64,000 nucleotides of DNA, taken from the IMG/VR virus record IMGVR_UViG_3300025705_000581, one strand, 5' to 3'. Positions 3,206 to 29,633 of this stretch are shown piece by piece. The notes under the pieces were generated by a model. It was not told where the DNA came from, did not search any database, and was given only the letters and a program-made list of their open reading frames with translations. Origin of the DNA: a virus. The translations under genes were made by a program, and so were the position numbers. Within the stretch, counting starts at the first letter, position 1; the number at the start of each line of letters is the position of its first letter.

Positions 3206-3241
3206 TTGACATTACTAATAGAATCAGTTTATATTAGAATC
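3206..3241 (+). promoter_or_regulatory. sigma70-type early promoter with two GANTC sites
   Basis: TTGACA-18nt-TATATT; GAATC at 3221 and 3237. Confidence 0.8.
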
Positions 3242-3267
3242 ATAACAAATATAAACTTGAGGTAGTA

Positions 3268-3804
3268 ATGTTAAATTTTGTCAAAAATACACCGATTGCA
3301 GTAACACAGTCTGTTATCAGAATAATCCTTGTTCTAGGACTTGTAGTTGCTGCTAGCACAAGCCAAGCAGAAGCACAACGGATTGTTGGATTTGATCCAT
3401 TAGAATTCCCTGAAGAGCACTGTCTTGCCTTAAATATTTACTACGAAGCACGAAGTAGTAACCTTGCCGATAAAGCAGCTGTTGCTGATGTTGTCCTTAA
3501 CCGTATGAATGATACACGTTATCCAAACACAGTTTGTGGTGTAGTACAAGACGGTTATGTTAAAGGTCGCCGTGATTGCCAGTTTAGCTGGTACTGTGAT
3601 GGAAAATCTGATGTTCCTGCAGATTTTGACCGTTGGTCCGAGGCACAGAATATTGCGTTTGCAATAACAAAGTGGAGTGAGTTCCGTGGCATCAGTGAAG
3701 GTGCAACTCATTACCATGCTGATTATGTCCAACCTTATTGGGCTTCAAGTCTACAACTTGTTGGTACAATCGGCCGTCACGTATTTTACCGGTGGAATAA
3801 ATAA
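3268..3804 (+). CDS. SleB-like cell wall hydrolase (Hydrolase_2) with predicted signal peptide
   Basis: CLALNIYYEAR, VADVVLNR, YPNTVCGVV, CQFSWYCDG, GATHYHADYVQPYW, IGRHVFY; hydrophobic N-term ending AEA. Confidence 0.88.
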   Translation: MLNFVKNTPIAVTQSVIRIILVLGLVVAASTSQAEAQRIVGFDPLEFPEEHCLALNIYYEARSSNLADKAAVADVVLNRMNDTRYPNTVCGVVQDGYVKGRRDCQFSWYCDGKSDVPADFDRWSEAQNIAFAITKWSEFRGISEGATHYHADYVQPYWASSLQLVGTIGRHVFYRWNK

Positions 3805-3936
3805 ATGATTGAAATAGTCGGAATATTCCGCGAAGAAGTAATTAAGAAAACATTCAAATGCCCGTTAGATGCAGGTGAGTTCAGAGATTTTCTTGATGCT
3901 CAATATCCAATTAAAGTAATATGGAGGAGAACATAA
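3805..3936 (+). CDS. small hypothetical protein (43 aa, not in ORF track)
   Basis: ATG 3805 to TAA 3936; fills the gap and its stop overlaps the next ATG. Confidence 0.5.
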   Translation: MIEIVGIFREEVIKKTFKCPLDAGEFRDFLDAQYPIKVIWRRT

Positions 3937-4247
3937 TGTCAGAAGAAAAATACGTTGTTGTTACATCAATTTCTCAATTTAGAGTACGGCATGCTATTCC
4001 AATGAGTAGATTACAAGAAATGAATCCTAATATGCCTGTTGATCCTGAATGGGCTAACGATGCTGTTACAATGAATGAAGCAAAAGAATTTTCACAAACT
4101 CATTTGGGTGATACTATTCTTGATACGTTTGTTCTTGATGAAGAAAGAGTACTTCAACTGTTTGACCGCGATAACGATTATCTATCAGAATGGGATAAAG
4201 AAAAGAAATTAAACTATATTGACGATTGGAAGGAAAAACCACTGTGA
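3936..4247 (+). CDS. hypothetical protein
   Basis: GGAGGAG SD upstream of ATG 3936. Confidence 0.65.
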   Translation: MSEEKYVVVTSISQFRVRHAIPMSRLQEMNPNMPVDPEWANDAVTMNEAKEFSQTHLGDTILDTFVLDEERVLQLFDRDNDYLSEWDKEKKLNYIDDWKEKPL

Positions 4248-4441
4248 CCCATTCCGTCGAAGAATTATATCAAAAGATAAGTGTACTACACGAAAAGGCA
4301 ATAGAACTACACCGCGAAAGATACCGTGTATCAGGTAGTTATGATGAAACACAATGTCAGTATATGGTTGACGATATAAAAGCATTTGCTCGTGAGATTG
4401 AACGTGGTCCTATTGATTTAGATAGAGATTTTAGTAAGTAA
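4244..4441 (+). CDS. hypothetical protein
   Basis: Probable GTG start overlapping upstream TGA; operon packing. Confidence 0.5.
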   Translation: MTHSVEELYQKISVLHEKAIELHRERYRVSGSYDETQCQYMVDDIKAFAREIERGPIDLDRDFSK

Positions 4442-4442
4442 A

Positions 4443-4760
4443 ATGGAACATAAAGAATTAACACCTGACTGTTGGGTGGTAATACGAATAAACAATACAG
4501 AGCCTGCACATTATAGATTATTAATAGGTTTTGAAGAAAAAGATGAATATAAAGTTAGCACAAAGATTGAATCCTGTGAAGCTGTAAAGAAAGATTATGT
4601 GTTTACAACCGACGCTGTAAAATATTTTTGTAATGACAAGAACCGTGGTTTAAGACCAGTTATTGACCACGTATATCTTTCAATGGTTGACTCAAGTCAG
4701 CATGACATAACATTAGTCAGAAACGATGAGGATTTCTCACTACTACATTATATGGAATAA
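4443..4760 (+). CDS. hypothetical protein
   Basis: ORF track, tight operon packing. Confidence 0.55.
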   Translation: MEHKELTPDCWVVIRINNTEPAHYRLLIGFEEKDEYKVSTKIESCEAVKKDYVFTTDAVKYFCNDKNRGLRPVIDHVYLSMVDSSQHDITLVRNDEDFSLLHYME

Positions 4761-4763
4761 AAT

Positions 4764-5522
4764 ATGAAAATTTTGATATGCGGTCATGGTTTCGTTGGTA
4801 AGGCCCACGGGTTATTTCTATCATCGCACCATGATATTAAAGTGTATGATCCACAATTGGGTTATAAAGATACTACAGTATTTGATGATGCCGATGCAGT
4901 TATTATTGCCGTTTCCACTCCCGAAGGTGAAGATGGCCAATGCGATATGTCAAATGTGTATGACACAATCGAGCGCATTATGCCAGGAACACCTGTTCTT
5001 ATAAAATCAACGGTCAGTCTTGAAGGTTGGCGGTTGATTAACCGTGCCTACCCAGATGAATTTATTACCTTTTCTCCTGAATACCTCCGAGCTGATTATG
5101 CTATGGAAGATTTTAAAAATCAAAAAAGTATAGCTGTAGGTGGCGGTGACGTTCACTTATGGGTTGGTGTATTATCAGACTCATTAGAAATACGTGTTGA
5201 TATTATGAACCCTGAGGTACTTATTTTAAACAAGTATTTTAGAAATGCGTTCTTGGCAATGAAAGTTGCCTTCTTTGAACAGATGTATGATATGGCGATT
5301 ACGTCAGGTGTTGATCCGCACGAATTATTGGCAACTGTTTCAGATGATGCACGTATTGGTAAAAGTCATACATATATTGATACAGATGACCGAGGTTTCG
5401 GTGGTCATTGTTTCCCAAAAGATACATCAGCTTTATTGGCAACAGGCCATCAAATGGGTTACGACTTGTCCATCTTGTCCGAGGCAATGCAATATAATGA
5501 AAGGTTAAGAGATGAAAGTTAA
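4764..5522 (+). CDS. ugd: UDP-glucose/GDP-mannose 6-dehydrogenase family (short form)
   Basis: GHGFVG Rossmann, IKSTV, FSPEYLR, KYFRNAFLAMKV, GFGGHCFPKD catalytic Cys. Confidence 0.85.
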   Translation: MKILICGHGFVGKAHGLFLSSHHDIKVYDPQLGYKDTTVFDDADAVIIAVSTPEGEDGQCDMSNVYDTIERIMPGTPVLIKSTVSLEGWRLINRAYPDEFITFSPEYLRADYAMEDFKNQKSIAVGGGDVHLWVGVLSDSLEIRVDIMNPEVLILNKYFRNAFLAMKVAFFEQMYDMAITSGVDPHELLATVSDDARIGKSHTYIDTDDRGFGGHCFPKDTSALLATGHQMGYDLSILSEAMQYNERLRDES

Positions 5523-5946
5523 GATTGGAAAGTACCCTAGTCATAGATTTTATCACAACTGGTTATACAACTGGTTTGGGTATTCCCCAAAGCAAACAAT
5601 AAGTATAAAGATTCACGACTATGATACGTGGAGTATGGATCATACACTTGCTCATATTATCTTGCCTATGCTAGTACAACTAAAAGAAAATAATCACGGC
5701 CATCCTGCTAACTTAGAAGAACAGGAGTGGGATGACATCATGGATGAAATGATCTGGGCGTTTGAACAAAAGTGCCGAGATAATTGGGAAGATGATTATT
5801 ACGGCGACTATGATGAAGATCAAAAGAATGGGCCGATGGTTGGTAGTTTTGAATGGATTGACCATGAAGGACTGAAAACACATCAAGAAAGAATGACAAA
5901 TGGCTTTAGACTGTTTGGGAAGTATTTTGAAAATTTGTGGGATTGA
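5512..5946 (+). CDS. conserved phage hypothetical protein
   Basis: DTWSMDHTLAHIILPML and GFRLFGKYFENLWD resemble a family common in T4-like phages (recognition only). Confidence 0.6.
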   Translation: MKVKIGKYPSHRFYHNWLYNWFGYSPKQTISIKIHDYDTWSMDHTLAHIILPMLVQLKENNHGHPANLEEQEWDDIMDEMIWAFEQKCRDNWEDDYYGDYDEDQKNGPMVGSFEWIDHEGLKTHQERMTNGFRLFGKYFENLWD

Positions 5947-5953
5947 CAATGAA

Positions 5954-6163
5954 ATGAGAAAAATAGTATATGATAATGTTTGTGAAGTCGTAAGTACACG
6001 GACCGATGTTATAGTTGAGGCTGAAGCTGACAATATGAGACCAGGTGTTTCGTTTGAAGCTTATATTGCAAATAATAAAATTAAAATGAAATGGAATGGT
6101 AAAGTTTATGTCGGCAATGTGTCTGGCATGGAATTTACATCAAAAGGACCAAAAGAACTATGA
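5954..6163 (+). CDS. hypothetical protein
   Basis: In-frame ATG at 5954; stop overlaps next start. Confidence 0.5.
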   Translation: MRKIVYDNVCEVVSTRTDVIVEAEADNMRPGVSFEAYIANNKIKMKWNGKVYVGNVSGMEFTSKGPKEL

Positions 6164-6918: not shown

Positions 6919-7091
6919 TGTTTAAATTGTTTAAATCTAATACAGACGCAGAAATTGATTTTGAGCAAGATGTGTCAATGGTACCAAAGATTGAAATAGT
7001 ACCTGAGCCATCATTGTCAGATATGCTCAACTTGGTTGAAGAACGTCTTGACCGTATTGAAAGTAAAATTGACAAACTGCTCAATGAGTAA
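6918..7091 (+). CDS. small hypothetical protein (57 aa, not in ORF track)
   Basis: ATG 6918 to TAA 7091; C-terminal coiled coil; overlaps carbamoyltransferase start. Confidence 0.5.
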   Translation: MFKLFKSNTDAEIDFEQDVSMVPKIEIVPEPSLSDMLNLVEERLDRIESKIDKLLNE

Positions 7092-8454
7092 GGTTTGGTT
7101 AGGTATAAGTGAAGGCTTCCATGATGCCGGCGTAAGTATGATTTGGAACGGACAAATATTGTCGGCAACTCATGCTGAACGGTTTAGTCGTAAAAAGAAT
7201 GACCGTTGGGTTCATCCTATGCAGTATCCGCAAGGTATTAATAACGGATATGATAAGATTGCTTTTTATGAAAAACCTTGGTTGAAAACAACACGTCAGC
7301 TATGGGCAGGTCAAGGATTAAAACCAAAACGTACTAAATACAACAAGTCATTCCATCACCACGAGTCTCATGCTGCGGCAGGGTTTTATACTTCAAAGTT
7401 TGATTCCTGTAATATTTTAGTTGTTGATGCAATCGGTGAATGGGATACTGTTTCCGTGTGGAAAGCATGGACAAAGAACGGTGTACCAAAAATGATTAAA
7501 TTAAAATCATATAAGTATCCGTTTTCAGTGGGTTTGTTTTATTCAGCAATTACTAAATCAATTAAATTGAAGCCACAGGAAGATGAATATATTACCATGG
7601 GTATGGCAGCATACGGTGAGCCAATTTATACCGATGAGCTCAAAGAAATAATGCTACACAAAAATTGCCATAAAGGAATACCAAAATGGCAATATGCAAA
7701 AGATGAAGATATTGCGGCATCAGCACAAAAGGTTGTTGAAGATTTCATTATTGAAATGGTAAAAGATTATTGCCCACACGAAAACTTGATTATGATGGGT
7801 GGTGTGGCATTGAATTGTGTTGCGAATACAAAGGTTGCTGAACTTGGCAAAAACATTTGGATTATGCCAAATCCTGGTGATTGCGGATCATCATTAGGTG
7901 CTGCGGCATTAGGTTATGGAAAGAAATTGATATGGGAAGATCCGTATCTTGGAACGGAGATTAAAAATGAAGTACAAGTTAAAAGCGTTGTTAAGCATCT
8001 TATTGATAATTCCTATTGTGGTATTGCGAATGGTCGTGCTGAGTTTGGCCCTCGTGCCCTTGGCAATCGTAGCCTTATTGCTGACCCTCGACGAGATGTT
8101 AAAGATACCGTTAACGAAATTAAACGTAGACAAAAGTTTCGACCCTTTGCACCTGCAATCCTGGAAGAATTTGCTAGTGACTATTTCCAAGGACCAATGA
8201 ATGAGTATATGCAATTTGTGGCGCAAGCCAAACACGATTATAAATCTGTAACCCACGTTGATGGTTCAGCACGTGTTCAAATTGTAAAACCAAACTGTAA
8301 ATCTATATTACGCCCAATACTTGAGGAATGGTATGAGCAAACAGGTTGCCCAATGTTATTGAATACGAGTTTGAATATTAAAGGTCAACCAATGGTTGAT
8401 ACTTGGCAGCACGCATTAGAATTTGAGAAAAAATACAATGTCAAAGTCTTCTAA
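7084..8454 (+). CDS. carbamoyltransferase, NodU/CmcH family
   Basis: GFHDAG, ERFSRKKND, HHESHAAAG, VDAIGE, GGVALNC, GDCGSSLGAA, GRAEFGPRALGNRS, FRPFAP, HVDGSARVQ, LNTSLN. Confidence 0.93.
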   Translation: MSKVWLGISEGFHDAGVSMIWNGQILSATHAERFSRKKNDRWVHPMQYPQGINNGYDKIAFYEKPWLKTTRQLWAGQGLKPKRTKYNKSFHHHESHAAAGFYTSKFDSCNILVVDAIGEWDTVSVWKAWTKNGVPKMIKLKSYKYPFSVGLFYSAITKSIKLKPQEDEYITMGMAAYGEPIYTDELKEIMLHKNCHKGIPKWQYAKDEDIAASAQKVVEDFIIEMVKDYCPHENLIMMGGVALNCVANTKVAELGKNIWIMPNPGDCGSSLGAAALGYGKKLIWEDPYLGTEIKNEVQVKSVVKHLIDNSYCGIANGRAEFGPRALGNRSLIADPRRDVKDTVNEIKRRQKFRPFAPAILEEFASDYFQGPMNEYMQFVAQAKHDYKSVTHVDGSARVQIVKPNCKSILRPILEEWYEQTGCPMLLNTSLNIKGQPMVDTWQHALEFEKKYNVKVF

Positions 8455-11375: not shown

Positions 11376-11378
11376 CTA

Positions 11379-11407
11379 TTGACAAATGCTTTAGAATCAG
11401 TTATATT
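11379..11407 (+). promoter_or_regulatory. sigma70-type early promoter with GANTC
   Basis: TTGACA-17nt-TATATT; GAATC at 11394. Confidence 0.8.
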
Positions 11408-11434
11408 AGAATTATCAAATAGAGGAAAAAGCAA

Positions 11435-11677
11435 ATGACATATCAAGTTGAACTCGACATTTCATCAGAACCCACACACGGTGAGGTACTACAATTTGCA
11501 ACCGAACACGGTTGTACCGCAACTCTATTGCAGGCAAACGGTCCTGCTGGCGGCAATCCACTTTACTTATTCCAATCTGAATCATTTGATATGCTTCAAG
11601 AATTGTTTGAACAAGTTAAAGGCCATGGTCATGGCTTTGATGAAGAAGAAATTAAAACTATGTTTGTGGAGGTGTAA
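11435..11677 (+). CDS. hypothetical early protein
   Basis: First gene after early promoter; GAGG SD. Confidence 0.65.
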   Translation: MTYQVELDISSEPTHGEVLQFATEHGCTATLLQANGPAGGNPLYLFQSESFDMLQELFEQVKGHGHGFDEEEIKTMFVEV

Positions 11678-13653: not shown

Positions 13654-14073
13654 TGGTTTCATAACGGTGAAGAATTTACCTCAGAAATGATTGAAGACTA
13701 TGTTGGATTTGTCTACTGTATTACGGACAAGTCCAATGATAAGAAATACATTGGCAAAAAATTGCTAATGTCAAAAAGGCGCCTACCACCTCTTAAAGGT
13801 AAAACCCGTCGACGTATTAAAATCGTTGAGACTGATTGGCAAAAATATTATGGTTCATCTGAAGAAGTCAAACTGATGGTTGAAGAAAAAGGCGCCGACA
13901 ATTTCCATAGAGAAATACTACACCTATGCCATAAGAAAGGTGAGCTCGGATATTTAGAACTCCGGGAACAAATCTTACGTGATGTTTTATTGCGTGACGA
14001 TTATTATAATGGAATTGTCCAAGCAAAAATTCACCGAAACCACATAAAGTCATTGACATATCTTATAGAATAG
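13651..14073 (+). CDS. GIY-YIG nuclease (DenA/EndoII-like size, no C-terminal DNA-binding extension)
   Basis: GFVYCIT...KYIGKK, YYGSS, F.REIL. Confidence 0.75.
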   Translation: MWFHNGEEFTSEMIEDYVGFVYCITDKSNDKKYIGKKLLMSKRRLPPLKGKTRRRIKIVETDWQKYYGSSEEVKLMVEEKGADNFHREILHLCHKKGELGYLELREQILRDVLLRDDYYNGIVQAKIHRNHIKSLTYLIE

Positions 14074-14092
14074 ATTATTATAGTCTAGAATC
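14053..14092 (+). promoter_or_regulatory. sigma70-type promoter variant with GANTC near start site
   Basis: TTGACA-17nt-TATTAT-6nt-GAATC. Confidence 0.65.
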
Positions 14093-14106
14093 ACAAGGAG
14101 ATACCA

Positions 14107-14337
14107 ATGATTATCAAACGCAAATCAGCATACACCGGTCTGACTCGGTCAAAGGATATTCCTGTTGACCCACAAGGTTGGGCAATGTATCAGTCAGGTT
14201 ACGGCAGTGTTGATGAATGTCTTCCGTATCTTACTGATGAAGACCGTGACTTTATTTTGTCAGGTATGATGCCTGGTGAATGGAACACTGCTATCAGTGC
14301 CGAACTAAAACTAATTGTGGAAGATACTTTTATATGA
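14107..14337 (+). CDS. hypothetical protein
   Basis: AAGGAG SD; ORF track. Confidence 0.6.
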   Translation: MIIKRKSAYTGLTRSKDIPVDPQGWAMYQSGYGSVDECLPYLTDEDRDFILSGMMPGEWNTAISAELKLIVEDTFI

Positions 14338-16439: not shown

Positions 16440-16791
16440 TAACATTATAGAATTCCCTAAGGTTAATAATAACGTCGAGTCTTTGACGAAAGAACAACTG
16501 CGAGCGCAAATTGACGAGTACAAAGAAGAAGTAGCTAATGAAATGTCGGAATTTTTGTTTCGACACGTCATTGGTGAATTAACAAGGGTAGGGCATAAAT
16601 TTGATAAAAATATAGAACACTTTATGCCTTCTATGATGATGGTCCTAGAATCAATAAGGTCGTTAGCTTTACAGGCACACGGAATTGAGCACGACTTTCA
16701 ATCAATCGCAAAAGATATACTGGAAATTGAAATAAAAGATATTAACAGTTTTAAAGAAAAAATGGTTGACATTGAGGAAGAGTTAGATTAA
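16432..16791 (+). CDS. hypothetical protein
   Basis: MTDNIIEFP-type N-terminus; ORF track. Confidence 0.6.
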   Translation: MTDNIIEFPKVNNNVESLTKEQLRAQIDEYKEEVANEMSEFLFRHVIGELTRVGHKFDKNIEHFMPSMMMVLESIRSLALQAHGIEHDFQSIAKDILEIEIKDINSFKEKMVDIEEELD

Positions 16792-16794
16792 TAT
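16766..16794 (+). promoter_or_regulatory. sigma70-type promoter (no GANTC) upstream of RNase H
   Basis: TTGACA-17nt-TAATAT. Confidence 0.5.
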
Positions 16795-16829: not shown

Positions 16830-17690
16830 ATGGCAATATTAGTAGATTATAACCAAGTTATCCTTGCCTCGCTATTTGCGAGCATCGGTAATCACACGAA
16901 CATTGATGTAGATGAAAATCTTATTCGACATATGTTCTTAAATTCAATTCGTTCTAACCGTAAAAAGTTTACAAAAGAATACGGTGAGATCGTTATATGT
17001 GCTGACGGCAAAAATTCATGGCGCCGTGAAGCATATCCTTATTATAAGGCAAACCGTCGCAAATCACGAGATGAGTCTGAACTCGATTGGAATGTATTAT
17101 TTGGTATTATGAATACCATCCGAGATGAGTTGAAAGAATTCTTTCCATATAAAGTAATTCATATGGATCACTGTGAAGCTGATGATATTATTGGCACCAT
17201 CTGCCATGATGAAGGTACTGATTTAAATATCGGTAATGAAAAATACCTTGTTCTATCAGGTGATAAAGATTATATCCAATTACAATCCTATGTGAATGTA
17301 GATCAGTATGATCCTGTTCGCAAACGTTGGATCCGTAATGATAATCCTACGAATTATCTCAATGAGCATATCCTTCGTGGTGATAAAGGTGACGGTGTAC
17401 CAAATGTTCTGAGTCCTGACAATTGCCTTGCAGTAGGCACACGTCAAAAGGCAATGACAAAACCACGCCTTGAAAAATTACTCAAAGGTACATCTGAAAT
17501 GGATGAAGAAACATTGCGTTGCTTCCACCGTAATAAAATGATGATTGACCTAAGTCAAATCCCTGCTAATTACGTAGAACAAATTCGTTCGGAATGGCAG
17601 GCACCGAAAGACATCGGACGGCAATATCTATTTGATTATTTTGTCAAGCGTAAATTGAAAAACTTAATTACAGATATACAGGATTTTTAA
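16830..17690 (+). CDS. rnh: T4-like RNase H (5'-3' exonuclease)
   Basis: LVDYNQV, SWRREAYPYYKANR, EADDIIG, SGDKDYIQL, GDKGDGVPN, N..MIDL. Confidence 0.93.
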   Translation: MAILVDYNQVILASLFASIGNHTNIDVDENLIRHMFLNSIRSNRKKFTKEYGEIVICADGKNSWRREAYPYYKANRRKSRDESELDWNVLFGIMNTIRDELKEFFPYKVIHMDHCEADDIIGTICHDEGTDLNIGNEKYLVLSGDKDYIQLQSYVNVDQYDPVRKRWIRNDNPTNYLNEHILRGDKGDGVPNVLSPDNCLAVGTRQKAMTKPRLEKLLKGTSEMDEETLRCFHRNKMMIDLSQIPANYVEQIRSEWQAPKDIGRQYLFDYFVKRKLKNLITDIQDF

Positions 17691-18128: not shown

Positions 18129-18305
18129 ATGGCAAAAACGTTTAAGAAATTCCGCGAAGATTATATGGATGACGAATGGGGTGATGAAGACGAATCAGTT
18201 ACCAACAAGGAACGTCGTATGAAGAACCGCCGTGATAGGAAAAAAACTAAACACAATGAACGTAACGAAACATTTGCTGAAAAAAATGATTTAAAAAGAA
18301 ATTAA
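18129..18305 (+). CDS. small highly charged hypothetical protein (58 aa, not in ORF track)
   Basis: ATG 18129 to TAA 18305 fills the intergenic gap. Confidence 0.5.
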   Translation: MAKTFKKFREDYMDDEWGDEDESVTNKERRMKNRRDRKKTKHNERNETFAEKNDLKRN

Positions 18306-18308
18306 CTA

Positions 18309-18343
18309 TTGACATTTGAGTACAAATAGTGTAGATTGATTCT
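18309..18343 (+). promoter_or_regulatory. sigma70-type promoter variant with GANTC abutting -10
   Basis: TTGACA-17nt-TAGATT then GATTC at 18338. Confidence 0.65.
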
Positions 18344-18371
18344 ATAAGGTAAAACAAAAGGAATCAATCTT

Positions 18372-18761
18372 ATGGGTACTTCATCAATGATCGCAAACTA
18401 CAACGAAGACGGTACAGTTACAGCAACATATTGCCATTACGATGGTTATCTTGCTTATAACGGCCGTCTTCTTTTTGAATCATATAACACTCCTGAAAAA
18501 GCAAAAGCTGTTGCTAATGCAGGTTATATCTCAGGTTTAAAAGAAGACTTGCAAACATCTTTAGATGAGTCAGTACATTCAAACCAATCTCCTGTAACAT
18601 ACAATTCAGTTGAAGATTTTCTGGCAAATGGCCGTGAATATGCTTGTGCTGATTACCTTTACCTGTTTGATGGTGAAGCATGGTTCTTTGCTTCAACTAT
18701 GAATAACGGTCCATGGTTGATGGAAGAAGTTGAAATGAATTTAGCGGTGGAGGCGGCATAA
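18372..18761 (+). CDS. hypothetical early protein
   Basis: MGTSSMI...YCHYDGY motif of a widespread phage family; AAGGA SD. Confidence 0.65.
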   Translation: MGTSSMIANYNEDGTVTATYCHYDGYLAYNGRLLFESYNTPEKAKAVANAGYISGLKEDLQTSLDESVHSNQSPVTYNSVEDFLANGREYACADYLYLFDGEAWFFASTMNNGPWLMEEVEMNLAVEAA

Positions 18762-18786: not shown

Positions 18787-18821
18787 TTGACATTCTCCGT
18801 AGAATCAGTTATATTAGAATC
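18787..18821 (+). promoter_or_regulatory. sigma70-type early promoter with two GANTC sites
   Basis: TTGACA-17nt-TATATT; GAATC at 18802 and 18817; AT-rich UP-like element upstream. Confidence 0.85.
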
Positions 18822-18842
18822 ATCAACAAAAGGAAAAACCAA

Positions 18843-19208
18843 ATGACTACACAATTTAAAAACTTTGATCGCAAAAACCTGAAATCACTTCGTCAAGAAA
18901 TGAGTGCACTACTTGCATCTTATGGTGTATCAAGCAACCTTGATATTGAAGTTGGCAATATGTCTTTCAGTGATGCTGAAGTAAATATCAAAGTTTCAGC
19001 AAAAGTTAAAGGTGCGGTTACTATGACTGATCGCATTCTTCAAATGGAAGTTGACCGTTTGGGTCTTTCTATGAAAAACCGTGATGGTGATGAACTCATT
19101 GAGTACAAAACCCGCTCACCAAAATATGCCTTTGTTTTCCGTTGTGGTAAAACTGGCAAAATGTTTAAAACCGATGAGCGTGCTGCAATCCGGCGGTTCG
19201 CATCCTAA
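18843..19208 (+). CDS. hypothetical early protein
   Basis: First gene after early promoter; AAGGA SD. Confidence 0.65.
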   Translation: MTTQFKNFDRKNLKSLRQEMSALLASYGVSSNLDIEVGNMSFSDAEVNIKVSAKVKGAVTMTDRILQMEVDRLGLSMKNRDGDELIEYKTRSPKYAFVFRCGKTGKMFKTDERAAIRRFAS

Positions 19209-21215: not shown

Positions 21216-21219
21216 ACGC

Positions 21220-21450
21220 ATGGCAAATCCAAATTACGCATCCTTATTAGCACAAATTGCAGCGGAGACCGATCCCGTTGCTAAAGCAGCTTTGGAAGCA
21301 CAACTTGTTATTAATACAGAACTTACAGAAGAAGAAATAGAATTATTTGAGTATACCACATTTGACTATATTGAATTTAACCCGGGTTATAATAACGAGT
21401 TCAAATCATATGTTGGCGAATACTTTAATGACGACGGAGATTCAACCTAA
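21220..21450 (+). CDS. hypothetical acidic protein (probably late)
   Basis: ORF track; stop overlaps ATG of fibre gene. Confidence 0.55.
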   Translation: MANPNYASLLAQIAAETDPVAKAALEAQLVINTELTEEEIELFEYTTFDYIEFNPGYNNEFKSYVGEYFNDDGDST

Positions 21451-24400
21451 TGGCTATTACCAAAAGAAGCACTAAAGGCACCTCATTAACATATAATGAG
21501 ATGGACGATAACTTTGAAGCAATCGCACCGAGAACATCCGCGGAAGGTTCACTGCAATTACCATCAGGTTCAACAACCCAACGAGATACAACACCGGTTA
21601 ATGGTTATATACGATATAACAGTACACTGAACCAATTTGAAGGTTATGTGAGTGGGCAATGGGAACGGGTTGAGTCAACAACACAAGTTGGTACAGCAAA
21701 CCAAAATGCGTTTTCTGAATTTATTATTGCAGGACAAACAAGTATCCTGGCGGATGCTGTCACGGATAGTATTACTTTTGCAAACAATGCTGGTATTTCT
21801 ATTACGACCGATCCGTTAACCTCAACAATAACTTTTGAAAACACATCTATCCAAGATTTTGCTTTCTCAAGTTTAACAGGTGTACCAACAACAATTAGCG
21901 GTTATGGTATTACCGATGCATTTGATGGTGACTATACGAACTTAACAAATAAACCTACCATACCGACTAATAACAATGAGCTATTAAACGGTGCAGGATA
22001 TATCAGTTCGTTTACAGAAACCGATCCTGTATTCTCGGCATCCGCTGCTGCAAATATCATTTCGTCACAAGTTAGTAATTGGGATACTGCATATGGTTGG
22101 GGTGACCATTCTGTTCAAGGATATATCACTACCGAATCAAATGACTTAACTGTTGGTGTTACGTGGGTAACAGTTCCTGATCTTTATATTGCCAACACCG
22201 CGGTTGTTCAGCATCAGGCTGACCTATCAATTACTGAAAGTCAAATATCTGATCTTGGATCATATATAACTGAGGTACCTTCTGAATATTTAACCGAGAC
22301 TGAAGGTGATGCTCGATATGTTGCTACCGAGACTGATCCTGTATTTAGTGCGCATACAACTTCAAATATTGTTGATGGCACAGGCTATCTTTATAATAAC
22401 GGTAGCGGAACATGGATTTACGGTATACCAGGTGGTGGCGGTGGATCTGAGGTAAACGATTTAACAAGTGTAGTTACGTGGACAACAGTTCCTAATGCAT
22501 ATATTTCAGAATCAAGTGTTACACAACACCAAGCCGCATTATCAATTACTGAAAGCCAAATATCTGATTTTGGTAGTTACCTTGCCGATGATTATACTTA
22601 TACTGAAACTGATCCTATATTCTTGGCATCACCAGTTGGATCGGTAACAACAACACAAGTTAATAATTGGGATACTGCTTATGGTTGGGGTGACCACTCA
22701 ACACAAGGATATCTGACAGGTTCAGGTATTACCGAAACCGATCCTGTCTTTACCGCAGCGACAGTTAGTAGTATTACTGATGGTACAGGTTATCTTACAA
22801 ACGACGGGTCAGGTAATTGGTCTTATGTTTCACCAAGTACTTTTATTACTCAAGGTAATGAAACAGTCACAACTTTAACTGCTGATTCAGTAAATCAAAG
22901 ATTGGTATATACCGACGAAGATGGTACAAGTAATAATATTGATTTATCTTGGACAATTGATGATACCAATCTTGCAAGACTTACATCAGGATCCGTTAAT
23001 TCTAACACAAAGATTGCCACATTTACTCGAGATGATAATACAACCTTTACAATAGATTTTAGTTCAATTGCCGCACCTTTAACAGGTTTGGTTGATGGTG
23101 ACTTCACATCGGAAGGTTTGATGAAAAGAGGTCAAAATGCCGGTGATTATGAAATCATAACCGATAATTCTAGTAATTGGAATACTGCCTATGGTTGGGG
23201 AGATCACAGTACAGCAGGTTATAGCACTACATCTTATTCAAACTCCGATGTTGATGCGCACTTAAATCAAGGTAGTGCATCCTCAGGTCAACTCCTAAGT
23301 TGGAACGGATCAGATTATCAATTTGTTGATCCTTCTTCAAGTGGTATTGCACTTACTGATTTAAGTGTGATTACAAATACACCAGGATCACCTACTTTAT
23401 CTTATAATAATTCAACAGGACAATTTACTTATACTCCACCAGATTTAAGTTCTTACATAACAAGCGAAACGTCACACGTCGACGTTGTTGTTGATGGCGA
23501 CTTTGCAACTACAGGATTGATGAAAAGAGGTGTAAGTGCAGGATCTTATTCAACAATCACAGATAATTCCAGCGATTGGAATACTGCTTATGGTTGGGGT
23601 GACCACGCTCAAGCAGGTTATGCAACAGGTACTCTTTATACCGATACTGATGTTGATAACCATTTAAATAGTTCAACTGCAACTGTTAATCAAATATTAT
23701 CATGGACAGGCGCAGATTACGATTGGATAACATTAGCAACATCAAGTTATGGTGATAGTGATGTGGACACGCACTTAAATCAAGCATCCGCTGGAACAAA
23801 CAATGTTTTAATTTGGGATGGTACTGACTATGCATGGACAACACAAGTATCAGGTGGCATTGCCTCAGTTAATGATGATACTTCTCCATCATTAGGCGGT
23901 AACTTAGATCTTAACGGATATAACATTAGTGGTACAATAATTGACCTTAACGCAACAAGTTATGTCGGTATTCCTGGCACAACTCTCGATGGCGGTAAGC
24001 TTATGCTTAATAAAGGGCAAACAGGTACGCCATCATCAGCTACATCCAATTACTCTTATATTGCAGTCGAACGCGGTAACTCTAATGACGTATCCCTTCG
24101 TTGGAATGAAGGTACGGACAAATGGGAATTTACAAATAACGGCACCTCTTGGGAAGAAATGGGATCAAACACACCTGATTGGTCATCTATTCAAAATACT
24201 CCTACAACCATTTCAGGATACGGAATTACCGACGCATATGATAATTCCGCGGTTGATACACACTTAAACCTCGGTACAGCACAAGTAAACGAAGTACTTA
24301 CTTGGGATGGTTCTGACTATGCATGGTCACAAGCAACAGGTGGTGCAGCTGCAACTGAGAATGTTAATTATGTTACCATATCAGGATCAACAACAATTCT

Positions 24401-26714
24401 TCTTGCTAACGAAGGTCATTTTAACTTAAGTATTACAAGTGCATCAAACGGAGCAACCATTTTCCTTTCAGGTACAGGATTTACTCCATCGGACGAGTTC
24501 CATGAATTTTATGTTCTATATGTTAGATCAACAAGTTCAAGCCCTGTTATTACCTGGGACTCAAATATCTTTTGGGCATATCCAGGCGGTGCACCTGCCT
24601 TACCTGATTTTGGTAAAAGTACTCTTATAAGATTTGTTAGTTATAATGCAAATGCCGTGTCACCATCTGTACCTTATTATACTGCTTTTGTTGAAGTAGA
24701 AAACATATTACCCGACGGCCGTGGTGGACAAAACGCAGGATCATTTAATTATAGTGTCGCATATACAGGCACGCTGCCTGTGAAATTTGGCGGCGCGGTT
24801 TCACCTGAACCCGGTGTACAAGATGGTAATGTTTATGGGGCAGGAAACTTTGGTGATGGCGCGCATTGGTTTAATATTGATGGTGATACTCCTGGATATA
24901 TTTGGGGCCATGCATCAGGCGCTTTATATTGTGTTGCTACACAACAATTTGGCGGTGGTGCTTATCAGCCTGGTACTGAGTCAATGTTTGAAAGTAACCA
25001 ATTTAAAGACTTAAGTTCTACTGCAGCAAATTCACCGTTTATGAGTCCAGACGGACTTAAGTATTACAAAGTTACTAACGATTACAGCCAATCGCCTTCT
25101 GGATATAAACTTCAACAGCATACCGTAGGTACTGCATTTGATTTAAGTACGATAGCTTCAAGTCCAACCAACACTATTCAAATTACCGATACGGCAACAA
25201 ACCAAAACTTCTATGATAGTAGTGGAAATTGGGGACGGCCTACTCATATAAATTTTTCAAGTGATGGTACAAAGTTGTTTATTGGCGGAAGAATTGCAGT
25301 ATTAGCAAGATATGATTTAAGTGTAGCTTGGGATATTTCCACCGTAACTTTTTCATCAGGTACTATTGCTCAAGCAGATCAGGCGGTACGGTTCCAATCC
25401 TCAACATCAACCACAAGCAGTGGGAGCTGGTTTATGACAAAGGATGGATCTCAGGTTTGGTTCCAAAATGGCCAATCAGGTGCCATTATGAGTGTTAATA
25501 TTCCAACACCTTATGATTTATCTTCAGTAACAAATCCAACTACGGATCCTGTATCACAAGGTAACTATTCTGGTGAATCATCAGCATGGCCGTCAAATGG
25601 TTATCCCGGTGGTCTCCTATGGAGTGAGGCAACCGCAACAGAAGCAGCAGGTAAATATTTCTTTATGATAAGAAATGCATCAGGTTCTTGCCCGACGTGC
25701 CATCGTGGAACTTGTAGCACTCCATACGATTTATCTACAATTACCTGGGATGAAATTTTACCCACAGGTAGTAATATAGGAGCGTTAAGGGATCAAAACG
25801 ATAATAATGAAATCTCTCTAACGATTAATATGGAAGATGGCATATATTTTAGAAACGAAAGTCAAGCAAGTAGCACAGATAATTACGTCGTGGTTTTAAG
25901 TTATACGAACTCTGCCTATGGGTTACAGAGATGGGTACATTCAATATCTAACGGTAAGATTAATACAATAAATCCATTGTATTATGCCGACGATAGTAAT
26001 TATGACGGAGGGGAATACAGACCATTTGGCGTAGACTTTACTCAAACTGAACAAATGGTATTTTTGGAAAGAAGAAGACAATCTGGCAGTCCTATTACTT
26101 ATAATTGGTATATAACTTATTGCGCTAAGCAAATTACAAGTGGTTCAGCTACGTTACCTGGACTTTCACGTAAAGATATTACAAGCGTGATAACCGAAGG
26201 CGGCACAGTGTCAAGCCTGAGCCAAATGTATGTAGTCGGTTTACAGTTAAGAAAAGATCAGCTTTGGGCAACCAACGGTAACCCTGAAATGTATATCTTG
26301 AAAATGATTGGGGCACCAAGCCAGGTTTATCTCCAAAGAGTTGTTAATACGGCAGGTAGAACATCGGCAAATAACAGTAATGCCGGTTGGTCCACCTCAG
26401 CCCCTTATACAGTATTAGATTTATATAACTTAACAAACTATCCTCAAAATTCTAGGATTGCTGATTTTGTTATAACTCCTGACGGTACAAGAATTATTTG
26501 TGTATTTGAAGATGCGTCTTTGCATCAGTGGTCAATGTCCTCAGCTTGGGATATTACAAGTACAATTACTCACGACGGATCACAGTATATACCGATTAAA
26601 CGAGCAACTGCTAATATGCCTACACATATCCGTTTTAATTCAGACGGTACATTAGTTTACATTGTGAATAGAGATGGCATGGTTTATCAATATTCAGTTC
26701 TATTAGATATTTAA
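21450..26714 (+). CDS. large fibre/virion structural protein with stalk repeats and C-terminal beta-propeller-like region
   Basis: N-term LT..EMDDNF and GYIRYNSTLNQFEGY; 4x W(D/N)TAYGWGDH, 4x ETDP(V/I)F, 4x VD.HLN; C-term (Y/F)DLS and AWDI repeats; Ser/Thr/Gly-rich. Confidence 0.8.
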   Translation: MAITKRSTKGTSLTYNEMDDNFEAIAPRTSAEGSLQLPSGSTTQRDTTPVNGYIRYNSTLNQFEGYVSGQWERVESTTQVGTANQNAFSEFIIAGQTSILADAVTDSITFANNAGISITTDPLTSTITFENTSIQDFAFSSLTGVPTTISGYGITDAFDGDYTNLTNKPTIPTNNNELLNGAGYISSFTETDPVFSASAAANIISSQVSNWDTAYGWGDHSVQGYITTESNDLTVGVTWVTVPDLYIANTAVVQHQADLSITESQISDLGSYITEVPSEYLTETEGDARYVATETDPVFSAHTTSNIVDGTGYLYNNGSGTWIYGIPGGGGGSEVNDLTSVVTWTTVPNAYISESSVTQHQAALSITESQISDFGSYLADDYTYTETDPIFLASPVGSVTTTQVNNWDTAYGWGDHSTQGYLTGSGITETDPVFTAATVSSITDGTGYLTNDGSGNWSYVSPSTFITQGNETVTTLTADSVNQRLVYTDEDGTSNNIDLSWTIDDTNLARLTSGSVNSNTKIATFTRDDNTTFTIDFSSIAAPLTGLVDGDFTSEGLMKRGQNAGDYEIITDNSSNWNTAYGWGDHSTAGYSTTSYSNSDVDAHLNQGSASSGQLLSWNGSDYQFVDPSSSGIALTDLSVITNTPGSPTLSYNNSTGQFTYTPPDLSSYITSETSHVDVVVDGDFATTGLMKRGVSAGSYSTITDNSSDWNTAYGWGDHAQAGYATGTLYTDTDVDNHLNSSTATVNQILSWTGADYDWITLATSSYGDSDVDTHLNQASAGTNNVLIWDGTDYAWTTQVSGGIASVNDDTSPSLGGNLDLNGYNISGTIIDLNATSYVGIPGTTLDGGKLMLNKGQTGTPSSATSNYSYIAVERGNSNDVSLRWNEGTDKWEFTNNGTSWEEMGSNTPDWSSIQNTPTTISGYGITDAYDNSAVDTHLNLGTAQVNEVLTWDGSDYAWSQATGGAAATENVNYVTISGSTTILLANEGHFNLSITSASNGATIFLSGTGFTPSDEFHEFYVLYVRSTSSSPVITWDSNIFWAYPGGAPALPDFGKSTLIRFVSYNANAVSPSVPYYTAFVEVENILPDGRGGQNAGSFNYSVAYTGTLPVKFGGAVSPEPGVQDGNVYGAGNFGDGAHWFNIDGDTPGYIWGHASGALYCVATQQFGGGAYQPGTESMFESNQFKDLSSTAANSPFMSPDGLKYYKVTNDYSQSPSGYKLQQHTVGTAFDLSTIASSPTNTIQITDTATNQNFYDSSGNWGRPTHINFSSDGTKLFIGGRIAVLARYDLSVAWDISTVTFSSGTIAQADQAVRFQSSTSTTSSGSWFMTKDGSQVWFQNGQSGAIMSVNIPTPYDLSSVTNPTTDPVSQGNYSGESSAWPSNGYPGGLLWSEATATEAAGKYFFMIRNASGSCPTCHRGTCSTPYDLSTITWDEILPTGSNIGALRDQNDNNEISLTINMEDGIYFRNESQASSTDNYVVVLSYTNSAYGLQRWVHSISNGKINTINPLYYADDSNYDGGEYRPFGVDFTQTEQMVFLERRRQSGSPITYNWYITYCAKQITSGSATLPGLSRKDITSVITEGGTVSSLSQMYVVGLQLRKDQLWATNGNPEMYILKMIGAPSQVYLQRVVNTAGRTSANNSNAGWSTSAPYTVLDLYNLTNYPQNSRIADFVITPDGTRIICVFEDASLHQWSMSSAWDITSTITHDGSQYIPIKRATANMPTHIRFNSDGTLVYIVNRDGMVYQYSVLLDI

Positions 26715-26726
26715 GGAAAGAGAATA

Positions 26727-27158
26727 ATGCTTATACGAGTTAATGAAGATGGTACAATAATATATCCAATAGAAGGTAAGGACATTAAAAAGTACGTTGA
26801 ATTAGAAGGACTTGAGGTTGAAGATTTTACTGATTTGGATCTCTCAACAATTAGGATATATCCAGTTGATATACAAAATCCTGTAGGTACTGAATCGCAA
26901 TCCGCGGTGCAGCATACCGAACCGACATTGGTTGATGGCAATTGGGTTTTAGGATTTGATTTAGTATACCATGCTGATGAGGAATTAATTCAAAGCGCAA
27001 GTATTAAAAGGTGGACACTATTATCTGAAACTGATTGGATGGCATTATCGGATGTGACCATAAGTGATGATTGGAGAACCTATCGACAAGCACTGCGTGA
27101 TATTACTGAACAGGACGGATATCCTCAGATTATTAATTGGCCAACAAAACCTAGTTGA
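26727..27158 (+). CDS. tail fibre assembly chaperone
   Basis: LLSETDW.ALSD, WRTYRQALRDITEQ.GYP..I.WP.KP. Confidence 0.85.
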   Translation: MLIRVNEDGTIIYPIEGKDIKKYVELEGLEVEDFTDLDLSTIRIYPVDIQNPVGTESQSAVQHTEPTLVDGNWVLGFDLVYHADEELIQSASIKRWTLLSETDWMALSDVTISDDWRTYRQALRDITEQDGYPQIINWPTKPS

Positions 27159-27194
27159 CAAGTTCCTGCTTCTATGATATTATACAATGGAATC
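27155..27194 (+). promoter_or_regulatory. sigma70-type promoter variant with GANTC near start site
   Basis: TTGACA-17nt-TATTAT (TGn extended)-6nt-GAATC. Confidence 0.65.
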
Positions 27195-27210
27195 AGATAA
27201 AGGATATATT

Positions 27211-27876
27211 ATGTTTAACCATGTTGACCACGGTGTTGTGTTACCAAAGATTACACGAGGTGCAGTAAACGGTCACCGCAAGTACTACACACCTGAAGGT
27301 AATGCTTACCCATCAATTACAACAGTTTTATCCATACTTTCAAAAGAAGGAATTATGGAATGGCGTAAACGTGTTGGTGAAGAGGAAGCAAATAAGATTT
27401 CTCGTCAAGCAGCAACTCGTGGTACAGCAGTACACAAACTTGCTGAAGATTACCTTAACAATGATCCAAATTGGCAAGGTAAACAAATGCCTGCTAATTT
27501 AAATTCATTTAATGATTTGAGAAAGATTATCGACGGCCGTTTAGATAACGTGTGGATGCAAGAAGAGTTTCTTTACAGTGATAAACTTAAGACTGCAGGT
27601 CAGGTTGATTGTATTGCCGAATACGATGGTGAACTATCAGTAATTGATTTTAAAACAAGTCGTAAACCAAAGAAGGCAGAATGGATTGAAGGTTACTTTA
27701 TTCAAGCATCATTTTATGCCGCGGCATTCCTTGAAAGAACAGGTATACCAATCAAACAAGCAGTAATCCTTATTACAGTTGATGGCCATGAGGCACAAGT
27801 ATTTAAGATCAGAACATTTGATTATCTTGAACACTTCCTTGCGGTCCGTAAAAAATATGGTGAAGTAAATGAATAA
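27211..27876 (+). CDS. PD-(D/E)XK exonuclease (Cas4-like fold)
   Basis: YPSITTVLS, RGTAVH, AGQVDCI, IDFKTS, YFIQ..FYA. Confidence 0.85.
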   Translation: MFNHVDHGVVLPKITRGAVNGHRKYYTPEGNAYPSITTVLSILSKEGIMEWRKRVGEEEANKISRQAATRGTAVHKLAEDYLNNDPNWQGKQMPANLNSFNDLRKIIDGRLDNVWMQEEFLYSDKLKTAGQVDCIAEYDGELSVIDFKTSRKPKKAEWIEGYFIQASFYAAAFLERTGIPIKQAVILITVDGHEAQVFKIRTFDYLEHFLAVRKKYGEVNE

Positions 27877-27900
27877 TTTGAAATTAAATCAAATTAACCA

Positions 27901-27935
27901 TTGACATTTGGTATAGAATCAGTTATATTAGAATC
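27901..27935 (+). promoter_or_regulatory. sigma70-type early promoter with two GANTC sites
   Basis: TTGACA-17nt-TATATT; GAATC at 27916 and 27931. Confidence 0.85.
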
Positions 27936-27955
27936 ATCAAATAAAGGAAACTACT

Positions 27956-28300
27956 ATGACAAACTTCGACAAAACAAAATTTGAATTCCACGGCGGTTAC
28001 TTGACATACAAAGGTGATTACGAAGGTCGCCCTGTCTATAAAGAAGGCAAAAATGTTCATCCTTCAAACGTAGGTCGCGGAATTGATTTGTTTATCGCTC
28101 GTTTCAAGTACAGTGGTACACCAATCACAAAAGCAAAATTTCTTAAAGAACTGATTAGAAATTTTACTGTTGAAGAATATGTTGCAGCTCGCAACGGTCA
28201 CGAAGTTGCACCGACAAGAGTTCTTGATAACAAAAACCCAGGTTGGTCCGATAAGATTGTAGTAGCTTGGCGTGATAAGCGAGGTATGAAATCACTATGA
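27956..28300 (+). CDS. hypothetical early protein
   Basis: First gene after early promoter; AAGGA SD. Confidence 0.65.
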   Translation: MTNFDKTKFEFHGGYLTYKGDYEGRPVYKEGKNVHPSNVGRGIDLFIARFKYSGTPITKAKFLKELIRNFTVEEYVAARNGHEVAPTRVLDNKNPGWSDKIVVAWRDKRGMKSL

Positions 28301-28866
28301 ATATATTTGTCCTTGATGAGAACCCCAAAATTGCGGCACAGATGGTCTGTGATAAGCATTGCTCAAAGATGATTATTGAGTCCGGGCAAATGCTTTCTAC
28401 GGCCCATAGAATGCTTGACGGCTATATAGAACCGCGGCCTTCTAAATCAGGAAAACGTATCGTAAAATATTACGTTCATCCTGACACTGAAATGGAGAAT
28501 ATTCTATACAAAGCGGTGCATCATTATCATCCTTGCACCGTTTGGTCGACGTTATCAAAAGCCAATTATATATGGCATTATGAGCACTTTCTAGGCCTGA
28601 TAGAAGAATTCTCAGTGCGGTACAAAAAGTATCATATGACTGCGAGTAAGCTTAAGGATATCCTTGCCAGTCCTCCGCAGAATATACCGGATATTGGTAT
28701 AACAGAATTTCCACAAGCAATGAATAATTTTCCTTTATGTAAGGTTGAAGGTAATCCTGTTAGTGCATATCGCAAGTATTATAGTATGACTAAACATTTT
28801 GCAAAATGGGAAAAAGGTCGTGAAGCGCCTGCGTGGTGGCAAGGATTTGTAGGATATCCAGCATGA
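28297..28866 (+). CDS. pyrimidine-dimer DNA glycosylase (DenV)-related protein
   Basis: MNIFVLD..P..AA...CDKH..KM..ES.QMLSTAH, H..HPCT.W. Confidence 0.6.
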   Translation: MNIFVLDENPKIAAQMVCDKHCSKMIIESGQMLSTAHRMLDGYIEPRPSKSGKRIVKYYVHPDTEMENILYKAVHHYHPCTVWSTLSKANYIWHYEHFLGLIEEFSVRYKKYHMTASKLKDILASPPQNIPDIGITEFPQAMNNFPLCKVEGNPVSAYRKYYSMTKHFAKWEKGREAPAWWQGFVGYPA

Positions 28867-29189
28867 GATATATTCTGTTGGATGAAGATGCTGGTATCTT
28901 TTTAGGTACACATAAAGTTCCTTTAGGTAATAACGAATACGAAGGTTTTGTCATATTTTCATTACACAACCCGTTTGGAATCACAAAGGCATATTCGTTT
29001 GATAATATAAAAGATGCTCAACTTTATATGCTGTCTTTTCTTATTGACGAATTTCCTGATATCCGTGTACTTGAAATTGAATGTCAAAACAAATACGTTG
29101 ATGTTGTTGACCTACTAAAGAACGGTCTTGATGAGTGGACCTTTGATATGATTGATAATATTCCAATGATAAATGATACGGTTCATTAA
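28863..29189 (+). CDS. hypothetical protein
   Basis: ATGA overlap at 28863. Confidence 0.55.
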   Translation: MRYILLDEDAGIFLGTHKVPLGNNEYEGFVIFSLHNPFGITKAYSFDNIKDAQLYMLSFLIDEFPDIRVLEIECQNKYVDVVDLLKNGLDEWTFDMIDNIPMINDTVH

Positions 29190-29213
29190 TTTCTTTTTAA
29201 ATCAAATTAACTA

Positions 29214-29248
29214 TTGACATTTGCTGTCGAATCAGTTATATTAGAATC
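29214..29248 (+). promoter_or_regulatory. sigma70-type early promoter with two GANTC sites
   Basis: TTGACA-17nt-TATATT; GAATC at 29229 and 29244. Confidence 0.85.
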
Positions 29249-29269
29249 AATAACAAAAGGAATATAACT

Positions 29270-29590
29270 ATGACAAATCAAGCTGTAGCATACTGGATCG
29301 AAACTCCTCTTACAAAAGTAAACGCACTAATCGCTAAATATCACGCATACGCAAAAGATGAAGATCGTTCTTCTGCTATGTATGATGAAGATGCGAATGA
29401 TGTTATGCAAGCATTGTCTTACTTCCGTCAATCTGATACCGAAGCACTTTCACAACACGTTCAATTCATGGATACTTCACCTCGTGAAGATTTGATTGAA
29501 GCATTTTATTTTGATTGTGGCAAAGACTTCGTTGAGCACGTTCTTGGTTATGAAATGAGCCAATCATGGAAAGATGCTAATTTGATTTAA
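29270..29590 (+). CDS. hypothetical early protein
   Basis: First gene after early promoter; AAGGA SD. Confidence 0.65.
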   Translation: MTNQAVAYWIETPLTKVNALIAKYHAYAKDEDRSSAMYDEDANDVMQALSYFRQSDTEALSQHVQFMDTSPREDLIEAFYFDCGKDFVEHVLGYEMSQSWKDANLI

Positions 29591-29604
29591 TTTCAAATTA
29601 ACTA

Positions 29605-29633
29605 TTGACAATCTCAATAGAATCAGTTATATT
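29605..29633 (+). promoter_or_regulatory. sigma70-type early promoter with GANTC
   Basis: TTGACA-17nt-TATATT; GAATC at 29620. Confidence 0.8.

Follow-up and report, generated by a model that had tools for sequence, protein, structure and literature searches.

The closest described relatives of the arrangement considered here are the sigma70 promoters of Caulobacter crescentus that are methylated by CcrM and activated by GcrA, such as PcsM and PmipZ (PMC4647560; PMC5887438; Wu 2023, PMC9976885). GcrA is a sigma70 cofactor that binds domain 2 of sigma70 as a monomer and reads methylated words with an N-terminal domain carried on a linker of about 60 residues; its preferred word is TGATTCG, more broadly YGAKTCK, with AGATTCA ranked worst (Haakonsen 2015, PMC4647560), and its words are centred at -20 +/- 1, also at -30 +/- 2, or between +2 and +30, with almost none around the -10 box (PMC4647560). 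In Agrobacterium tumefaciens, GcrA binding is strictly dependent on methylation, so that the methylation state of a site matters. Phages that have tied their promoters to a cell-cycle regulator of the host are known: CtrA sites are present in promoters of phiCbK, of Brevundimonas phage Delta and of Mesorhizobium phage Cp1R7A-A1, and were validated by electrophoretic mobility shift assays and reporters (Mascolo 2022, PMC9437464). This is the closest phage precedent, with a different motif (TTAA-N7-TTAA); the same study, the only such survey that we came across, scanned cultured phages for GcrA motifs and saw no positional signal, and our literature searches turned up no description of words of the GcrA type at promoters of phages. 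T4-type phages, for their part, shuffle near-identical early promoter cassettes known as PeSLs (PMC2839356; PMC4122927). We consider here the IMG/VR virus record IMGVR_UViG_3300025705_000581, a stretch of 64,000 nucleotides (the window) that derives from an uncultured marine T4-like phage, probably with an alphaproteobacterial host, in which sigma70-type promoters carry one short word, TGATTC[T/G], at a few fixed places around the -10 box.

In the first half of the window (1-32.2 kb), the genes lie on the + strand and are preceded by sigma70-type promoters, while the structural genes lie on the - strand behind late promoters of the type TATAAATA. A first-pass annotation had listed six TTGACA promoters with GAATC in their spacer, and they are indeed there: TTGACA-N8/9-GAATC has exactly six matches in the window, all on the + strand (3206, 11379, 18787, 27901, 29214 and 29605), where shuffled sequences give 0.10 +/- 0.30 matches and none of 100 shuffles reaches six. 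The six form class A. Five of them read TTGACA-N9-GAATCAGT-TATATT with a 17-bp spacer; the sixth, at 3206, differs (GAATCAGTT, 18-bp spacer). The second GAATC that had been noticed 1 nt past the -10 of four of them is equally real (3237, 18817, 27931, 29244); the corresponding site is degenerate at promoter 11379 (GAATT) and absent at promoter 29605. The variants at 18309, 14053 and 27155 carry GANTC just downstream of their -10, as described. An independent consensus scan of 10.5-30.4 kb ranked the same sites at the top of the sigma70-type matches, with 11 of 12 positions matched; in these sites 17 bp separate TTGACA from a -10 that reads TATATT, TATTAT or TAGATT. The ten good promoters of the window, and the genes behind them, are the following.

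3206..3242, + strand: class A promoter; -35 at 3206-3211, AGAATCA at 3220-3226, -10 TATATT at 3230-3235, second AGAATCA at 3236-3242; gene behind, a cell-wall hydrolase, 3268-3804 (Pfam PF07486)
11379..11407, + strand: class A promoter; AGAATCA at 11393-11399, -10 at 11402-11407, downstream copy degenerate (AGAATTA); gene behind, an open reading frame (ORF) of 80 aa, 11435-11677
14053..14093, + strand: variant promoter of the form TATTAT-N6-GAATC; degenerate TAGAATAG in the spacer, -10 TATTAT at 14076-14081, AGAATCA at 14087-14093 (word centre about +3); gene behind, an ORF of 76 aa, 14107-14337
16766..16794, + strand: TTGACA-17-TAATAT promoter without any GANTC; gene behind, 16830-17690
18309..18366, + strand: class C promoter; spacer ending in AATAGTG, without GANTC; -10 TAGATT at 18332-18337, abutted by GATTC within an inverted word, TGATTCT, at 18337-18343 (centre about -4); GGAATCA at 18360-18366 overlapping the ribosome-binding site; gene behind, 18372-18761
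18787..18822, + strand: class A promoter; AGAATCA at 18801-18807, -10 at 18810-18815, AGAATCA at 18816-18822; gene behind, 18843-19208
27155..27195, + strand: variant promoter with TG ahead of the -10, again TATTAT-N6-GAATC; -10 TATTAT at 27178-27183, GGAATCA at 27189-27195 (word centre about +3); gene behind, PD-(D/E)XK nuclease-like, ending at 27876 (Pfam)
27901..27936, + strand: class A promoter; AGAATCA at 27915-27921, -10 at 27924-27929, AGAATCA at 27930-27936; gene behind, 27956-28300
29214..29249, + strand: class A promoter; CGAATCA at 29228-29234, -10 at 29237-29242, AGAATCA at 29243-29249; gene behind, 29270-29590
29605..29633, + strand: class A promoter without downstream word; AGAATCA at 29619-29625, -10 at 29628-29633; gene behind, DUF932, 29670-30623 (Pfam)

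GANTC is thus found in nine of the ten promoters, 16766 being the sole exception, as the first-pass annotation had counted. As a general figure this proportion does not hold. A complete IMG/VR genome of 221,447 bp, G001, is 95% identical to the window along its full length and stood in for the remainder of the phage genome; about 20 of its 34 sigma70-type promoters have the word close to the -10, and it is mostly missing from those with an extended -10 (TGn). Twelve class A promoters are present in G001, where the exact geometry pattern has 12 matches against one in the control; the same pattern has no match in the phages Cr30, phiM12 and HTVC008M.

What is enriched is a single word and not GANTC at large. 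The enrichment of GANTC in promoters that had been supposed stands in so far as 30 of the 467 GANTC sites of G001 fall inside the 34 promoter windows (0.9% of the genome; 4.2 expected), and it has to be narrowed in so far as only one word is concerned, GANTC being depleted genome-wide. Across the whole window we counted 146 GANTC sites, against 202 +/- 13.6 in shuffles. In G001, GA[AT]TC is present at 0.64 of the Markov expectation (275 versus 430), GAGTC/GACTC show no depletion (ratio 1.19), and the density of GANTC is 2.1 per kb here versus 4.7 per kb in Cr30 at equal GC content. GA[AT]TC could be depleted because the phage avoids a target of restriction, or because it avoids regulatory words in the wrong places. 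By contrast, 27 of the 81 copies of AGAATCA/TGATTCT in G001 are intergenic, while intergenic sequence makes up just 5.6% of the genome (p = 2e-14); the other three A/T-flanked GANTC classes, summed, have 98 copies, a single one of which is intergenic (p = 5e-10 for the contrast). It is thus TGATTC[T/G] that is enriched, a word seen as AGAATCA or CGAATCA when the top strand is read.

The places that this word occupies can be read from a larger set. An exact-pattern scan found the class A promoter in more than 116 IMG/VR stretches, and a second scan without spacer constraint found further ones; the resulting lineage set covers 1.8 Mb and 348 promoters, each with a ribosome-binding site and a start codon behind it. 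The start site was taken as 7 nt past the -10, and as it is inferred the positions carry an error of 1-2 bp. GANTC is centred as follows.

-18: 136 promoters; the spacer word
-3: 48 promoters; AGAATCA in 43, GGAATCA in 4
-4: 28 promoters; inverted, TGATTCT
+3: 13 promoters; AGAATCA in 11, GGAATCA in 2
+18 to +20: about 40 promoters; mainly GGAATCA within the ribosome-binding site (AAGGAATCA)

The last line, GGAATCA in the 5' untranslated region (5' UTR), is a third recurrent GANTC position, seen in about 40 of the 348 promoters, with flanks off YGAKTCK. The promoter at 27155 shares the GGAATCA form, and its G001 counterpart has AGAATCA instead.

Where the -35/-10 pattern is matched outside promoters (143 cases), a downstream word is present just 4 times. 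Classes A and C have in common an upstream element, TTGACATT, AAT at about -19 to -17 and TATATT, and they differ by the G and the C that turn AAT into GAATC. The downstream word is present in 24 of the 34 promoters of class C, which have no spacer word, against 32 of 136 in class A (Fisher p = 7e-7, in counts that take in orthologues, the cases being not fully independent): the spacer and downstream positions complement each other. The same complement is seen between orthologous promoters, as that at 11379 in the window has the spacer word and its counterpart at 185909 in G001 has AGAATCA right after the -10 and no spacer word. At promoters 29214 and 29605, compared with 203737 and 204132 of G001, a block has been replaced and at least one word kept in each. 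The replaced blocks comprise either the spacer plus the 5' UTR (11379-11440 versus 185909-185970) or the upstream element. To judge from the sequences compared, such differences at orthologous early promoters point to active cassette exchange.

Conservation extends beyond this set. Most word-bearing loci are just 70-75% identical to G001 where they can be aligned, and 18 hardly align at all. In distant lineages (e.g. L030, L031, L044 and L116), the upstream region, the linker and the -10 hexamer vary and CGAATC keeps its distance of 3 nt from the -10 that follows; in one copy the central base is altered (CGATTCG), which is still GANTC. A second TGATTCG lies, in these lineages, between the ribosome-binding site and the ATG. 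In three of them, IMG/VR contigs of 40-42% GC (L030, L031, L044), the words are paired, with CGAATC 3 nt before a -10 of the TATGAT type, and in L044 eight of nine promoters carry the pair CGAATC and TGATTCG at fixed places. The distant set was partly found with the word as query, which biases these counts upward and leaves the variation of the neighbouring bases unaffected. As CGAATC and its offset are kept while the neighbours have varied, the constraint falls on the GANTC word and on its distance from the -10. A relative about 70% identical (L249) has one orthologous promoter without the word, which is therefore not fixed at every orthologous site. We may conclude that selection acts on the word in several lineages of phages.

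How can this word be understood? Recruitment of polymerase loaded with GcrA is the best single explanation that we can offer, and we advance it tentatively. The strong early promoters of this phage of about 221 kb would be read by the sigma70 RNA polymerase of the host. They combine a -35 of consensus sequence, a spacer of 17 bp, a -10 close to consensus, an A/T-rich upstream element and, mostly, TGATTC[T/G], which would act as a GcrA box about 18 bp upstream of the inferred start, directly downstream of the -10, or both. GcrA would sit on domain 2 of sigma70 while its tethered DNA-binding domain would read CcrM-methylated GANTC on either side of the -10, a contact that would stabilize the binding of polymerase and aid promoter opening; through this added contact with cofactor-loaded polymerase the early promoters of the phage would out-compete those of the host. 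The promoters, the word, its places and its conservation are observed; a host endowed with both proteins, methylation of the words, and binding and activation by GcrA are what we infer. The first-pass annotation had proposed such a wiring, with YGAKTCK as the motif, and the motif is correct (PMC4647560). The phage words, TGATTCT and TGATTCG on the opposite strand, both fit it, and CGAATCA at 29228-29234 reads as TGATTCG, the published best word; GGAATCA (at 27189 and in ribosome-binding sites) falls outside. The word, its flanks and its conservation speak for the wiring; the spacer offset and the centres at -3 and -4 lie off the published geometry. As in Caulobacter, a sigma70 promoter is combined with GANTC in TGATTCG or YGAKTCK flanks, there is a spacer class and a class downstream of the -10, in either orientation, and there are usually one or two words. 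One short asymmetric word, in either orientation and on either side of the -10, behaves like the site of a flexibly tethered protein. Unlike the Caulobacter promoters, these belong to a phage genome, exist in about a dozen near-identical copies, have a core near consensus and lie in DNA that probably contains hydroxymethylcytosine; just 3 nt separate their spacer word from the -10, where Caulobacter has 5, and many downstream words are at -3/-4 and not at +2 to +30. The Caulobacter promoters are methylated and GcrA-dependent, as those of the phage would be on this reading.

The proposal requires a suitable host, and several features of the phage bear on its identity. A GapR homologue, which had been taken as a sign of an alphaproteobacterial host, is real.

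31905..32252, + strand: GapR homologue of 115 aa (PF10073, E 2.9e-28); DNA-binding domain at residues 43-114

Compared with the bacterial homologues of 89-90 aa, it is extended at its N terminus by about 40 residues; it probably marks an alphaproteobacterial host and is not part of the promoters. The two-piece transfer-messenger RNA (tmRNA) of G001, of alphaproteobacterial type (107 bits), agrees. As a link to OCS116 or Pelagibacter this tmRNA failed, with weak similarity to both. G001 also has an ALA synthase gene, which proved uninformative as a host probe: it is 50-55% identical to homologues throughout the class, hence does not narrow the choice, and its matches at 72-77% are mis-binned phage contigs.

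The public bin G407 (Rhodobacteraceae bacterium Water_Bin34) speaks, with reserve, for a host of the kind required. It is a mixture, in which 8 of 20 sampled contigs are relatives of the phage; it contains eight tmRNA matches (one high-scoring, on a bacterial contig, and several lower-scoring that resemble the phage's), four ALA synthase genes, three of them on phage-like contigs, and two GapR genes, one of them on a phage-like contig. This bin is heavily contaminated by this phage group, inferences about the host drawn from it need care, and co-binning shows similar composition, not infection. Its bacterial contigs (33-38% GC, near that of the phage) encode a GcrA (158.9 bits) with a DNA-binding domain about 80% identical to that of Caulobacter and in which R33, N34, I37 and G38, the residues that form the methyl pocket according to Wu 2018 (PMC5887438), are intact, as well as a CcrM-type methylase (229 bits); their GapR is 63% identical to that of the phage, versus 38% for the Pelagibacter homologue. 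OCS116-type genomes likewise have both GcrA and CcrM. In candidate host genomes, the sole conserved match to the class A geometry lies inside the pgk coding sequence.

A series of observations has to be set against recruitment of GcrA. The phage seems to supply neither of the two proteins that the first-pass annotation had proposed to look for: G001 has no N6_N4 (CcrM-type) methylase and no GcrA, the motif [DNS]PP[YFWH] is absent from all its called ORFs, and no CcrM-type methylase was found in two complete relatives. G001 has instead, at 86.8-87.4 kb (L261:1498-2193, - strand), a dCMP hydroxymethylase like T4 gp42 (E 1e-61 to PDB 1B5E, against E 1e-5 only to thymidylate synthases), from which it follows that the C of GANTC is probably hydroxymethylated, perhaps glycosylated; by this gene content the phage DNA probably contains 5-hydroxymethylcytosine. 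The geometry is displaced as well: the phage promoters read TTGACA-9-GAATC-3-TATATT where the scaffold used in cryo-electron microscopy reads TTGACA-7-GAATC-5-TATAAT, and with 3 nt instead of 5 to the -10 the spacer word is therefore about 2 bp off, while the centres at -3 and -4 lie where neither published range of GcrA words reaches and where such sites are rare in Caulobacter. The promoters are so near consensus that an activator should be needless. Neither Cr30, our positive control with its Caulobacter host, nor phiM12 has such an arrangement, and 220 kb of candidate-host DNA, a small sample, gave no intergenic enrichment of the word. As to the host, a Pelagibacter metagenome-assembled genome lacks a CcrM-type methylase and has a GcrA-like hit below threshold only, in agreement with Brilli 2010 (PMC2877005), where SAR11 is without the CcrM/GcrA system; similar marine phages with ALA synthase were assigned a pelagiphage origin in one paper, so that SAR11 may still be the host.

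The word might instead be the site of another sequence-specific protein, a phage regulator of early or middle genes (such as a repressor that would occupy the -10 region and so silence the early promoters) or a host factor other than GcrA, the presence of GANTC being then incidental. We consider this unlikely, though deserving of attention: the conserved unit is one fixed 6-7-mer (GAATCA/TGATTC) and not a varied GANTC, the centres at -18, -3 and -4 hug the -10 in a way that suits occlusion of polymerase and departs from the published GcrA geometry, near-consensus promoters need shut-off more than activation, and the phage is without methylase and probably has hydroxymethylated DNA. Yet a single asymmetric 7-bp word, in both orientations and on both sides of the -10, would be unusual for a dimeric regulator, and we identified no candidate regulator; the word and its 3-nt offset are common to lineages that cannot be aligned with one another, which favours a host factor over a phage one, and the copy with an altered central base has kept GANTC. 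The word might also be contacted directly by polymerase or sigma, or be a DNA-shape element of the spacer or discriminator, in very strong promoters where GANTC is a coincidence. This fits the presence of AAT at about -19 to -17 in classes A and C, and more weakly in others, whether or not it is flanked by G and C, as well as the placement of the downstream copy, which occupies the discriminator and whose last two bases, CA, coincide with the expected start; the T5 N25 promoter, too, presumably has AGATTCA after its -10. But one word in four positions and two orientations cannot be a single fixed contact, class B promoters are equally good without it, and it is precisely the G and C making GANTC that separate class A from class C, which compensates with a downstream word, and we see such a contact as decidedly improbable.

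The word may, finally, have no function of its own and be hitch-hiking in promoter cassettes recently copied and shuffled, like the PeSLs. Such shuffling is documented in T4-type phages (PMC2839356; PMC4122927), and the phage promoters resemble PeSLs as many near-identical strong sigma70 early promoters placed before small ORFs in variable regions, with cassettes exchanged among relatives: the copies share near-identical stretches of about 75 bp that begin with the upstream element and run across the promoter as far as the 5' UTR, and two genomes with 95% identity have whole blocks replaced at orthologous promoters. They are unlike PeSLs in that no stem-loop terminator adjoins them (terminator-like sites number 15 versus 13.1 expected, which is no enrichment) and in that an extra conserved word is present which is not part of the described PeSL motif. 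Against a hitch-hiking word stand the first half of the spacer, which varies freely while the word is constant, its persistence at 70% nucleotide identity and in unalignable lineages on different promoter backgrounds, and its avoidance elsewhere in the genome; we give this explanation very little credence, and leave a small share of the probability to none of the four. The T4-like phage Cr30, which has a Caulobacter host and 38% GC, differs in turn by early promoters with a CTTTACTT-type -35 and no fixed GANTC, and does not avoid GANTC.

The window, of 38% GC, owes its assignment to a T4-like phage to a gp23 major capsid protein (E 3e-146) and a gp20 portal (E 1e-156; both Pfam). Megablast against cultured phages gave zero matches; judged by their capsid and portal proteins, the nearest ones belong to the Sinorhizobium phiM12 group, at just 53-67% identity, followed by HTVC008M, at 48%. 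On the - strand, 50515-59874 encodes a late protein of 3119 aa, probably a giant tail fibre or another virion fibre, which has an intramolecular chaperone domain at its C terminus (Peptidase_S74, E 9e-16). Inside the early region, an ORF of 1754 aa (21450-26714, + strand) has no Pfam match, and of the early genes on the + strand 1429-2976 resembles glycosyltransferase family 17 while 7036-8454 encodes a carbamoyltransferase that has both the N- and the C-terminal domain; their products may act on DNA or on a component of the cell surface. TTAA-N7-TTAAC boxes lie directly upstream of the -35 at 18291-18306 and 29587-29602, and other copies read TTAA-N6-TTAAC. The idea of CtrA boxes was tried for the window and abandoned: three full boxes are present where 1.69 are expected, a number attained in 26 of 100 shuffles.

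If GcrA is indeed recruited, gating of the early promoters by the cell cycle or by the methylation of virion DNA, as the first-pass annotation had suggested, is a conceivable but speculative further step. A bolder proposal, to which we attach little probability, is that the early promoters lose the GcrA boost once the progeny DNA is unmethylated, a replication-coupled epigenetic timer that several unrelated lineages would have acquired independently. Just the injected parental genome, methylated by CcrM, would then be read efficiently, and early transcription would be shut off without any phage-encoded factor.

GcrA has hitherto been known as a cell-cycle cofactor for cellular genes. Should its recruitment by the early promoters be true, abundant marine phages would enlist a sigma70-bound reader of epigenetic marks so as to prevail in the contest for the polymerase of the host, and a new strategy of transcriptional takeover would be added to those of phages. 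The word and its placement would then also provide a sequence mark helping to assign uncultured phages to alphaproteobacterial hosts endowed with CcrM and GcrA.

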